This document shows positions 19,201 through 22,200 of a stretch of DNA of 64,000 nucleotides, in pieces (within the stretch, counting starts at the first letter, position 1; each line of letters starts with the position of its first letter). Location: the IMG/VR virus record IMGVR_UViG_651053023_000001, positions 32,001-96,000 of that record, one strand, 5' to 3'. This DNA comes from a virus. Lineage: Duplodnaviria; Heunggongvirae; Uroviricota; Caudoviricetes. The position numbers are program-made.

Positions 19201-22200
19201 CTGCAAAAGTGAGCTGGAATTCAGAAGATACCAGTCGTTCGCCTTTGGCCGCGTTGGCAGTATAGCGGCCCTTAATAAATTTACGGTTTCCCTTAGTGTT
19301 ATTGTGCCCCATATAAAATCCTTTTACTGGAACGCCCGAACAATATCGGAGCTGTTATATATCGAAGAACCGGTCAACTGGAGGTTGACGGTGTTTTTCA
19401 GGAAATGCCCATTGCTGTCCCTGGGCGCATCGAGATCGAAACTTATGTCCTGGATAGCGACATCAATGATGTTGATCCGGCGACCAATGTTTAGCGTCAC
19501 ACGCTCCGGGATTCGACCACCAATGCTGGCATCTTTAAGTTCCGGGCTAATCATCGCTGACAATGCGGCGATAGCTCCTGAAACCTCCGTGAATGGGTCA
19601 AACAAAGCGATGAAAGTTACTGGCAGCGTGAAAGTCGGCGGTGTTCCCCCCTCCCAAACCATTAAGCTGTTCCAACGGGCCACCGACGTTGTTTCAGTAC
19701 CAACCTGCGCAAAACCACTGAAAGCACCAGCAACAGACCCCATGGACATACCGGTAAACGGCGCTTCCCAATTCTGGGCCATGTTCATTGCTGCCCCCTG
19801 GCTGATATATCCGGTAACCTGGTACTGAGAGTTCGTTAAAGTAACTTTCAGAAATGGCGATACACCGTCAGCCTGGCTGTAAACCCCATAAGGTATAGGT
19901 GCCATTCAAGTTAAAGGCCGGAGTTCTCCGGCCTCCTCCTTTAGCCAAGGCGCTTACGGCGCAGTTTCATTGACTTTTTGCGGGCAAGTTTTGCCGCGCC
20001 GGTCTGGGCTTTTCGACGCGCTTTTTTCAGCGCCGATTTTTGAGCCGCAGTCAGACGTTTTTTACGCAGGCGTTTACGGATGAGTTTGATCTCACCATTA
20101 CGAACAACCTTCTTAAATGCTTCAGTCAGCATTTCATCAGAAGTGCCAGCAACAACAAACGCCGCTTCCAGTTCGTCGCGGTCGTCGCTATCTAAACCAG
20201 CGATAGAGGCACCAACATCAGCAGCTGCGTCGTCGTCTTCATCGTCAGCCAGTGCTTCGATCAGGTCATCATCTACACCGCATGCTGCGAGGAAGTCAGC
20301 AACATTTGCCCATGCTTCGTTATAGGCATCGTCCTGTTCTTCTGTAACTTCGGAGTCGTCGTCATCAGAGATACCAGCGATAGCCTGAACGAAACCATCA
20401 AGGGAGTCGAAAGTCAGATCACCGCTATCAGCCCAGGCGAAAACGGCGTCGGCCGCATCACTCAACGCATTCTGCATAGCACTTCGATTTGCAGCTTCCA
20501 GAATCATCTGGTGCGCCTGTTCGACGGTCCATTCTTTACCGTCTTTCCCTTCCAGGATTTGCTCAGGAGCCGGGGCAGATGGAACGTTATCGTTAGTCTG
20601 TGCCGCCGGTTCCGGATTATTATTAATAACCGGATCTGTTGGCGGTTCAGCGCTTGCTCGGGCAGACTCCATCAGCTGCACAGGATCAGAGTTCAAAGCG
20701 AAACGGGACAGTCCATTCCCCAAAAATGCCCCGGATTGAAAAAAGTTTTTGCTCATTGTATTTCCTTACTTAATAAGCAGCGGTACGCCCTGGATACGAC
20801 GGGCTACGCCAGTCGGGCAGCAGGCCCAGACTACTTCCCATTTATCGAATTCCGCCTGCGTAACTTTCAGCACATACGGTTCTGTACCGTCAGCATCAGG
20901 ATCACGAGGAGCCACCAGAGCGCCGGAGGCGACAAAGCGATCCAAAAGTTTGGTCATCCCTTTAGTCAGGCCAGACTCAGTAATGCCGTCCGGGTTATGC
21001 TTCATCTGTCGGGCTAACTGGACAAAGAAACGGCTGATTGCATTCATCAGGGATGGGACGTGCTGGAAATGCAGATAGTTGTCCTGCGTGCAGCAAGTTA
21101 AAGCATCATCGATGATCATCTGGCCCGAAGTACCTACAGATACTTTATTGAGTCGGCCCTTGACCATAGCTTCTTCGTCCGGGGTGTCTTCCGGATACAG
21201 CGGTTGAAGTGATGCACGAGCAATGACGGCACGTTCTTCACCAGCCGGTGAGTAATGCCAACCGCCGACATCGGAGTTTTTCTTGACGCCACGAGCTTTC
21301 GCCGCATACGCCGCGCCAGACAGACCGAAGACCACGCGGGATTGGGTCCATTTGTCTTTGCAGGAGAACGGGAAATGATAGACAGCACAGCTTACATAAT
21401 CGGTACCAAGTAAACCGGTATCTTCAACAGCAGAGATCGCTTCCGTGTACGTCAATGTCGGTTTGACATCAAAGAAGCCATCAATCAGGCGATCTGCACA
21501 GATTTTACCTAATGCGGTGATAGCCGCATTGTCATAGCAGCCCAAGCCAAGAACAGCGGTGTACATGTACGGCGCATTATTCAGCACTTTAACCGCACGC
21601 AGGTACGCAGCGGTTGAGATTTTCGACTGATCGCCGTTGGTACCGCCAGTGAACGCCAACGATTTTTTGTTTGTTACTTTCGCTGTCGAAATCAGCTCTT
21701 CATTAACAACCGCGCGCAGATATTTAGAACGGGCTTCCAGAGCCGTAGGCAGATAACACAAGCGGCCCATGTCATCTTTCGCTTCTTCCGCCAAAGACAC
21801 AGTGTGTGTCTCCAGGGTCGTTACCACGCCGAGCGAAGTCGTCTGGGTCAGTTTTAAGAGGAAGCGTTCATTACCCGCGCTGTCCGCTGTTGCCGTTTCG
21901 ATGGTTAACTCACGGGTAGGTGAAATACACGGATCACCATCATCAACGTAGATAGCAAAGGCTTCGCCGCTATCAAGTTCAATTTCAGAACCGTATGGCA
22001 ACGCACTGTTAGCCGGTTCGCCTGATTCATCGAACATAATAATCGGGAACTTCGCATCATCCGGAACAGCACGGACAACATAACCAGACGTTTGCTGAAT
22101 AGCTTCGTACACATGGCGAATTGGTTCAAACTGTGAGCCGGAAGACGGCTTCAGCGGTTCGCCAAGAACATCTTCGTAATTGGACTCAGTAACCGCAAGA

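Follow-up and report, generated by a model that had tools for sequence, protein, structure and literature searches.

Gene 21 of a P1-like phage-plasmid: a probable prohead protease substrate encoded among tail genes

The DNA analysed here (the window: the whole stretch of 64,000 nucleotides, positions 32,001 to 96,000 of IMG/VR record IMGVR_UViG_651053023_000001) is that of a P1-like phage-plasmid; over the 5.5 kb around gene 21, identity was 99% to Punavirus P1 records and 97.5% to reference P1. P1 is studied as a classic model phage and is widely used as a tool for transduction, Cre-lox, P1-derived artificial chromosome (PAC) vectors and the delivery of protein and DNA, and P1-like phage-plasmids spread resistance genes. 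The product of gene 21 (gp21), labelled in databases as a tail protein, was compared across related genomes; from this comparison it is rather probable that gp21 is a prohead-internal scaffold or core protein cut by the maturation protease, and not a tail component.

Locus and gene family

Gene 21 is the third gene of a minus-strand late operon with the order 23, 22, 21, pmgG, bplB. The features of the operon, in window coordinates, were as follows:

22416–24143 (minus): gene 23, major capsid protein precursor; first gene of the operon
20766–22355 (minus): gene 22, tail sheath; immediately upstream of gene 21
20763–20767 (minus): Shine–Dalgarno sequence AAGGA of gene 21 (upstream sequence read), overlapping the TAA stop of gene 22
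19941–20756 (minus): gene 21 (homologue of P1_gp056), 271 residues (open reading frame call); phrog_1053, function unknown (profile match)
19324–19905 (minus): pmgG, T4 gp48-like tube initiator/baseplate–tube junction; downstream of gene 21
18803–19312 (minus): bplB, the actual tail tube protein; downstream
18764–18783 (minus): strong intrinsic-terminator-like hairpin with T-run, ending the operon

A preliminary description, made from the sequence alone, had placed a 271-residue open reading frame (ORF) at 19941–20756, between the sheath gene and tube-like genes; the frame was reproduced exactly, on the minus strand, with gene 22 upstream and pmgG and bplB downstream. Gene 21 starts at ATG and its product has an isoelectric point (pI) of 4.5. 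Genes 22 and 21 lie in one common reading frame, TAA plus three codons standing between them (20756–22355, minus). Because the Shine–Dalgarno sequence of gene 21 overlaps the sheath stop codon, the sequence suggests that the two genes are translationally coupled.

A full-length profile match (E = 1.5e-99, residues 10–270) identified gp21 as a member of phrog_1053, the P1 gp21 family, for which 594 representatives at 50% identity were obtained at an E of 1e-3 or better. Gene 21 is a universally syntenic core gene: a capsid homologue lay alongside it in 301 of 327 loci, the remainder being loci without a detected capsid gene.

Charge architecture and predicted structure

Residues 66–215 of gp21 contain 42 Asp/Glu and 5 Lys/Arg (net −37); the last 45 residues (227–271) contain 22 Lys/Arg and no Asp/Glu, so that the acidic core and basic tail first noticed were borne out. 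In 20,000 shuffles of the same composition, neither the best nor the worst observed 45-residue window (+22 and −20) was reached, the extremes being +14 and −19. The pattern is a trait of the family: median net charges in 209 homologues were −32 (body) and +18 (last 45 residues); in 87 non-redundant clusters the basic module averaged +22 and the rest of the protein −32, and the charges of module and body were anticorrelated (r = −0.42). The predicted parts of the protein are:

20667–20756 (minus): residues 1–30, predicted disordered N-terminal propeptide, ending at the first candidate cleavage site
20142–20525 (minus): residues 78–205, acidic all-helical domain (AlphaFold2; predicted local distance difference test score, pLDDT, 82–92)
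19944–20120 (minus): residues 213–271, basic module; 6.8 kDa, pI 12, net +25

The core had been described as a long Asp/Glu-rich stretch; it is acidic, but it is predicted to be a compact helical domain and not a disordered run. No structural relative of the domain of residues 78–205 was detectable. The basic module is predicted to consist of a beta-hairpin-like segment (VVRNGEIKLI) and two helices. No other part of the family is as well conserved (mean pairwise identity 52%, compared with 31–32% for the mature capsid protein and the sheath), with G221, Q239, K249 and K261-S262 as conserved positions. Residues 1–30 are possibly a capsid-targeting peptide.

Four homologues (P0184, P0223, P0225 and P0085) were found to have two tandem basic modules or a C-terminal extension past the module; each junction carries a further motif of an acidic residue followed by a small residue, as if the modules were freed from a small polyprotein.

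Candidate cleavage sites and predicted products

Two short motifs of gp21 are near-invariant: [MLI][LMFV]E[SNAG], which ends at E30, and [MLIV]xE[AS], which ends at E212, directly before the basic module. The sites considered (↓, mapped or candidate point of cleavage) are:

20664–20675 (minus): candidate protease site 1, L28-M29-E30↓S31 (QLME↓SA), from the alignment
20493–20504 (minus): probable additional site, I85-L86-E87↓A88 (MILE↓AA), at the start of the helical domain
20118–20129 (minus): candidate protease site 2, L210-T211-E212↓A213 (MLTE↓AF), in a disordered linker, from the alignment
23760–23774 (minus): capsid maturation cleavage site, AMLE↓S (E120↓S121 in P1 gp23 numbering)

The only P1 maturation site mapped by experiment is AMLE120↓S121 of gp23, found by Edman degradation (PMC9024508). 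The gp21 motifs QLME↓S and MLTE↓A resemble it, and at both the pLDDT of the AlphaFold2 model is below 50. The motif before the basic tail lies 58–66 residues from the C-terminus in approximately two-thirds of the 209 family members; the acidic helical domain has conserved sites at its edges and none inside. At E87 the motif becomes QILD↓AA in Asp-type and ALFA↓SV in Ala-type genomes. Distant homologues contain many motif repeats in disordered N-terminal regions, some with Asp for Glu. In another P1 protein, DarA, the motif DLLE68↓A is located where the density from cryogenic electron microscopy (cryo-EM) begins (approximately residue 70).

The gene 23 reading frame begins in the window at TTG, seven codons upstream of the annotated start of reference P1 (24122–24143, minus), and residue numbers are therefore shifted by 7 (E127 here is E120 in P1). 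Three hhE↓[SAG] copies (SILE56↓A, LIE112↓S and MLE127↓S) are present in the N-terminal (delta) domain of gp23, residues 1–127, and none in the remaining 448 residues; this distribution suggests that the delta domain may be chopped into pieces and not removed whole.

Predicted products of gp21: 1–30; 31–87, possibly cut again at E69; 88–212 (13 kDa, net −35); 213–271 (6.8 kDa, pI 12, +25).

Co-variation with the capsid maturation site

As Asp replaces Glu in some distant homologues of gp21, the capsid protein of the same genome should change alike if both are cut by one protease. Hand-checked genomes: the residue aligned to gp23 E120 was compared by hand with the gp21 motif residue in six genomes, and the two agreed in all six:

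Pair 1: capsid MLE↓S; gp21 LME↓S, LTE↓A
Pair 2: capsid IFE↓G; gp21 IFE↓S, VLE↓S, VLE↓A
Pair 3: capsid IFE↓A; gp21 ILE↓A, IFE↓A
Pair 4: capsid LLD↓A; gp21 seven xLD↓x motifs
Pair 5: capsid ILD↓S; gp21 VFD↓S, ILD↓A, ILD↓A
Pair 6: capsid LLA↓S; gp21 ILA↓S, LFA↓S, LLS↓S

Family-wide comparison: a scan of viral contigs with the full family gave near-identical P1 copies only and was repeated with Asp-type and Ala/Ser-type sub-alignments; these sub-alignments were chosen for non-Glu gp21 motifs, the selection being on gp21 and not on the capsid protein. The 327 gp21 loci obtained, 301 of them with a capsid homologue, were reduced to 189 unique pairs and to 94 clusters at 90% capsid identity. In 88 of the 94 clusters the capsid site and the two gp21 sites shared one residue (55 Asp, 31 Glu, 1 Ser, 1 Ala), and the remaining six were Ala/Ser mixtures or one-column alignment shifts. 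In the one locus that seems to disagree (L198), an E-type motif stands 15 residues upstream of the aligned column. At site 1 (E30) the agreement with the state of the capsid site was 100% across E-type and D-type genomes.

Relatedness control: on a neighbour-joining tree of the capsid protein each of the three sites required 8 changes, and these coincided. Asp-type groups are nested beside different Glu-type relatives; thus the Asp-type loci L272, L278 and L283 have 56–60% capsid identity to the Glu-type locus L270 and less than 40% to other Asp-type groups, and between L270 and L272 all five capsid and gp21 motifs flip.

Column control: of 1,221 well-occupied columns of capsid protein, gp21 and sheath, only three matched the capsid-site state at 0.9 or above: the capsid site and, at 1.00 and 0.95, the two gp21 sites. 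The next-best column reached 0.73 and the best sheath column 0.64. The density of motifs flipped with genome type only in gp21 and in the N-terminal 150 residues of the capsid protein; no such flip was seen in the mature capsid protein, the sheath or the downstream tail ORFs. Distance correlations were 0.80 (gp21–capsid), 0.79 (gp21–sheath) and 0.87 (capsid–sheath), and hence do not separate head from tail.

The maturation protease

Pro, the P1 protease, has the fold of the T4 gp21 protease and herpesvirus assemblin, and carries hhE↓S motifs of its own: E170-S171, in the linker after the protease domain (conserved in 116 of 116 homologues), and E295-S296, before the disordered tail (114 of 116). 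At 13 Asp-type loci with a protease gene, hhD↓S/A motifs (e.g., FFMD↓SA) and almost no hhE were found in Pro; the only Glu-type locus with a protease gene had four hhE and no hhD. The motifs of Pro follow the genome type, so that all three proteins or domains, Pro, the capsid scaffolding domain and gp21, switch in concert. In Vibrio fluvialis a Pro homologue (P0345) is Glu-type and a locus from another assembly (L011) is Ala/Ser-type; the two are on different contigs and cannot be linked.

In a large Asp-type clade the protease gene stands directly upstream of the capsid gene, the order being Pro, capsid, sheath, gp21 (L123 3520–4374; L117 about 3497). In P1 the protease gene is approximately 35 kb from the capsid gene, the head genes now being scattered.

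The co-variation is most simply read as meaning that the prohead protease cuts gp21. In T4, HK97 and herpesviruses, proteases of this fold act inside the assembled prohead, which would place gp21 there as well. The gp21 motif could instead be left uncut and act as a short linear motif docking the partner of the capsid delta domain (e.g., Pro or the portal), or the co-variation could be an artefact of relatedness: cleavage of gp21 has never been observed, and related sequences can inflate co-variation. Such an explanation is very improbable, however; the motif is identical in form to the mapped cleavage site and lies within disordered linkers, the switches are several and independent, the signal stands out from 1,218 control columns, and docking to Pro would still put gp21 in the prohead.

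The tail annotation

P1 gene 21 carries the annotation note 'baseplate or tail tube'; other records have 'tail tube protein Gp21' or 'baseplate or tail tube protein'. In published cryo-EM structures BplB forms the tube, Tub and PmgG are its initiators, and gp21 is not among the ten baseplate proteins listed. With this assignment, and with gp21 missing from every solved structure, the label is outdated.

Homology searches: no match to gp21 was found in Pfam, NCBIfam or PADLOC, and the PHROGs match was to a family without known function; PDB chains gave no match to the family profile even at E = 10, and PDB profile searches, run for the whole family and separately for the basic module, gave nothing significant (best, a ribosomal protein, E = 0.78). 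A weak match to a PHROG 'tail protein' family, phrog_1346, was recorded at E = 0.042. A tube fold was rejected, as the model is all-helical, with no strands of three or more residues and no beta-sandwich, and profile matches were absent. The product names of several records are what speaks for a structural tail tube or baseplate protein; against these stand the helical model, the cryo-EM assignment of tube and initiators to other proteins, the lack of any PDB chain match and the failure to detect the good tryptic peptides of the intact protein (see below), and a structural tail role is hardly credible.

The preliminary description had offered a scaffold or chaperone as one possibility. The scaffold part stands, in the form of a prohead scaffold whose protease sites co-vary with the capsid site; for a tail chaperone no tested feature of the family gave support, and neither profile similarity to a tail assembly chaperone nor sequence or fold similarity to a known scaffold was found. 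A chaperone of the gpG/GT type was rejected: gene 21 lies between the sheath and the tube initiator, and not between the tube and the tape measure, the putative tape-measure gene sit (7333–11028, by size and position) being approximately 9 kb away. No overlapping minus-strand ORF of at least 50 residues was found as a frameshift partner, slippery sites not having been searched exhaustively. Also rejected was the helical domain as a free-standing copy of the gp23 delta domain, considered on account of 'ILEAA...W' look-alikes (hhalign probability 1.2%).

A non-structural factor of tail or baseplate assembly, chaperoning the sheath, tube initiator, tube or tape measure and not kept in the virion, has more in its favour: the gene keeps its place between sheath and tube initiator in all lineages, amber mutants led to the annotation 'baseplate or tail tube', intact gp21 is missing from the virion proteome as well as from the tail and baseplate structures, and the phrog_1346 match, although weak, is to a tail family. 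The basic tail could, for example, sit in the negatively charged lumen of the tube, which is electronegative (PMC10304247). Such a factor would leave unexplained why two to three gp21 motifs track the capsid and protease sites through switches between E, D and A, when the sheath and other tail proteins do not. The hallmarks of a chaperone (position, frameshift partner ORF, profile similarity) are missing, and the amber tail phenotype could be due to polarity or to alleles in pmgG or bplB; this explanation was judged quite unlikely.

Virion proteome and the possibility of packaged cargo

The published P1 virion proteome (Gonzales et al.; PMC9024508; trypsin, at least 2 unique peptides) lists the products of neighbouring genes and not gp21. 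Intact gp21 would yield four good tryptic peptides; once it is cut at E30, E87 and E212, none of the fragments would give two fully tryptic 7–30-mers. In the absence of usable tryptic pairs after processing, the proteome excludes intact gp21 from virions, but not its fragments. Peptides of gp21 to be looked for in virion mass-spectrometry data: DELEAAFVVAGTSDEMLTE, EWTVEQAHQMILE and FALNSDPVQLME.

The products could also be cargo: gp21 would be processed in the prohead, and one or both products would remain in the mature head and be delivered to the cell together with the DNA. The +25 module would then be protamine-like, neutralising or protecting DNA, and/or the acidic domain would be a DNA-mimicking anti-defence factor, comparable with the T4 internal proteins and the P1 Dar proteins. 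All of the protease-substrate evidence applies equally to such cargo. Where further sequence follows the module, sites on either side would free it, and some homologues carry two copies in tandem; the anticorrelation of its charge with that of the body is what is expected of a neutralising pro-region; the acidic domain, having no internal conserved sites, would survive as a 13-kDa unit, and the products would be undetectable in the proteome cited. On the other side, gene 21 is core and syntenic (301 of 327 loci), whereas Dar-type cargo is variable (PMC12810830); the position-specific conservation of the module (G221, Q239, K249, K261-S262) favours a defined protein partner over non-specific DNA binding; no Ocr or ArdA fold match and no PADLOC match were obtained, and such a peptide is unreported from P1 virions. 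Packaged cargo was accordingly regarded as unlikely, though to be taken seriously.

An injected DNA mimic with a nucleic-acid-binding tail had been suggested at the outset. A mimic of the Ocr/ArdA type found no support (no fold similarity; a core gene, universally syntenic and not accessory), and the suggestion was not upheld, with the reservation that processed fragments would escape the published tryptic proteomics.

In a narrower form, the +25 module of 59 residues would stay on the packaged DNA as a protamine-like peptide, enter the cell and there could shield or bridge DNA ends; sodium dodecyl sulfate gels, tryptic proteomics and icosahedral cryo-EM would be blind to it. We hold this to be quite improbable. 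An unidentified phage protein has long been proposed to hold abortively transduced P1 DNA in its protected circular form; a retained module would be a candidate for this protein.

Proposed role of gp21

The proposed course is the following. Gp21 would be made at a high level from the late operon headed by the capsid gene and taken into the assembling prohead. Pro would cut it after Glu30 and Glu212, and probably also after Glu87, at sites of the same kind as those at which it strips the capsid protein of its N-terminal scaffolding domain, to give a short N-terminal peptide, a very acidic helical domain of 13 kDa and the 59-residue basic module (+25). The conserved module may anchor gp21 to the inner shell or to another conserved head component, and the acidic domain may fill the prohead and be repelled by the incoming DNA; the cut at E212 would uncouple the two so that the core can clear, as does the M-site cut of the herpesvirus scaffold.

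A scaffold or core role is favoured because gene 21 is a universal syntenic core gene in the operon of the most abundant virion proteins, and because the protein is helical and acidic with a C-terminal element that would be severed as at the herpesvirus M-site. The traits of the scaffold class were found in gp21: it is predicted to be helical, is acidic, is presumably abundant by way of the late operon shared with capsid and sheath, and is absent from virions in its intact form. The opinion that function could not be read from the sequence thus proved too pessimistic, the comparison of genomes having yielded a specific assignment.

Several points weigh against this assignment. What was observed are the motifs, the disorder around them, the way they vary with the sites of capsid protein and protease, and the fold of the protease; incorporation into the prohead, cleavage, the partner of the module and the fate of the fragments are inferences. 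The gp23 site alone was mapped experimentally in P1, the other sites coming from alignment. No sequence or fold similarity of gp21 to known scaffolds was found. Other candidates for a P1 scaffold exist: the N-terminal domain of gp23, DarA/Hdf (PMC12810830) and a 78-residue helix in Pro. In every lineage examined gene 21 lies between the sheath and tube-initiator genes. The annotation 'baseplate or tail tube' stems from classical amber mutants. In the abstract of Walker and Walker (1983) gene 21 is reportedly placed among the baseplate genes. A call of gene 21 as 'essential' by CRISPR interference was also considered and is confounded by polarity on pmgG and bplB. The tail phenotype of the amber mutants could equally be polarity on these two genes, both essential for the tail, or the so-called 'gene 21' alleles could sit in pmgG or bplB, whose tube initiator and tube roles match the recorded phenotype.

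The searchable literature contains nothing that places gp21 in the head, and text searches turned up no passage that discusses gene 21. According to PMC9024508, a capsid scaffolding protein of P1 has yet to be identified, a statement repeated in the 2026 head-structure paper (PMC12810830).

Relation to known systems

Herpes simplex virus 1 pre-VP22a/UL26.5: like the proposed gp21, an internal scaffold whose short C-terminal element is severed (M-site) by a protease of the assemblin fold. The P1 protease has this fold, and E212 of gp21 stands just before the conserved C-terminal module. In contrast to the herpesvirus protein, gp21 is encoded among tail genes, and the two have no sequence or fold homology; the element severed would be 59 residues and extremely basic, against a hydrophobic/amphipathic tail of 25 residues, and binding of the gp21 module to the capsid is putative.

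T4 core proteins (gp22, gp67, gp68, IPI–III): substrates of the T4 gp21 protease, which cuts at L/I-x-E. P1 gp21 differs in that one polypeptide unites acidic and basic parts and in that its gene is outside any head-gene cluster, and no homology to a T4 core protein was detected.

P22 gp8: acidic and helical, with a C-terminal Lys/Arg-rich helix pair, as in P1 gp21. The basic C-terminal helix-turn-helix of gp8 binds coat protein and the protein is recycled intact, without proteolysis; the P1 module is far more basic and is preceded by a candidate protease site, and the two proteins are not homologous.

Adenovirus pVII and pX/mu: basic DNA-binding precursors trimmed in the capsid by the maturation protease, and the analogue of a module retained on the DNA. 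The virus lineage and protease are unrelated to those of P1, and retention of the gp21 module is hypothetical.

Lambda gpG/gpGT and P2 gpE/E+E': small acidic non-virion proteins encoded, like gp21, among tail genes. Unlike these chaperones, gp21 has no frameshift product, is not encoded adjacent to the tape measure and shows no profile similarity; we know of no tail assembly chaperone that is a substrate of a head protease.

Gp21 would therefore not belong to a known scaffold family, but would probably work like one, with an unusual architecture and a location among tail genes. If this holds, the statement that P1 is without a separate scaffolding protein and the labels 'tail tube' and 'baseplate' need correcting; a large, uncharacterised and universally conserved family (at least 594 clusters at 50% identity) joins the head-assembly machinery; the protease family has a specificity code at the P1 residue of its site (E, D or A/S); and virions possibly contain a DNA-associated basic peptide. 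The approach can be applied generally, since unknown substrates of capsid proteases can be found from sequence alone by looking for protease-site residues that co-vary across genomes.

Further observations at the locus

Capsid–sheath interval: distant relatives have an extra small ORF (103–182 residues) after the capsid gene and before the sheath gene; P1 and the window lack it, the gap in the window being 60 nucleotides. Its positions are:

L002: 7924–8235
L004: 7823–8371
L007: 1842–2357
L009: 8057–8440
L011: 7952–8377

Interval between repL and bplB: a 51-residue ORF (18531–18686, plus strand) encodes a toxin of the Hok/Gef family (Pfam PF01848, E = 3e-20). The same spot in reference P1 holds rlfA, rlfB and pmgF, which appear to have been exchanged in this element for an addiction module of the hok/sok type.

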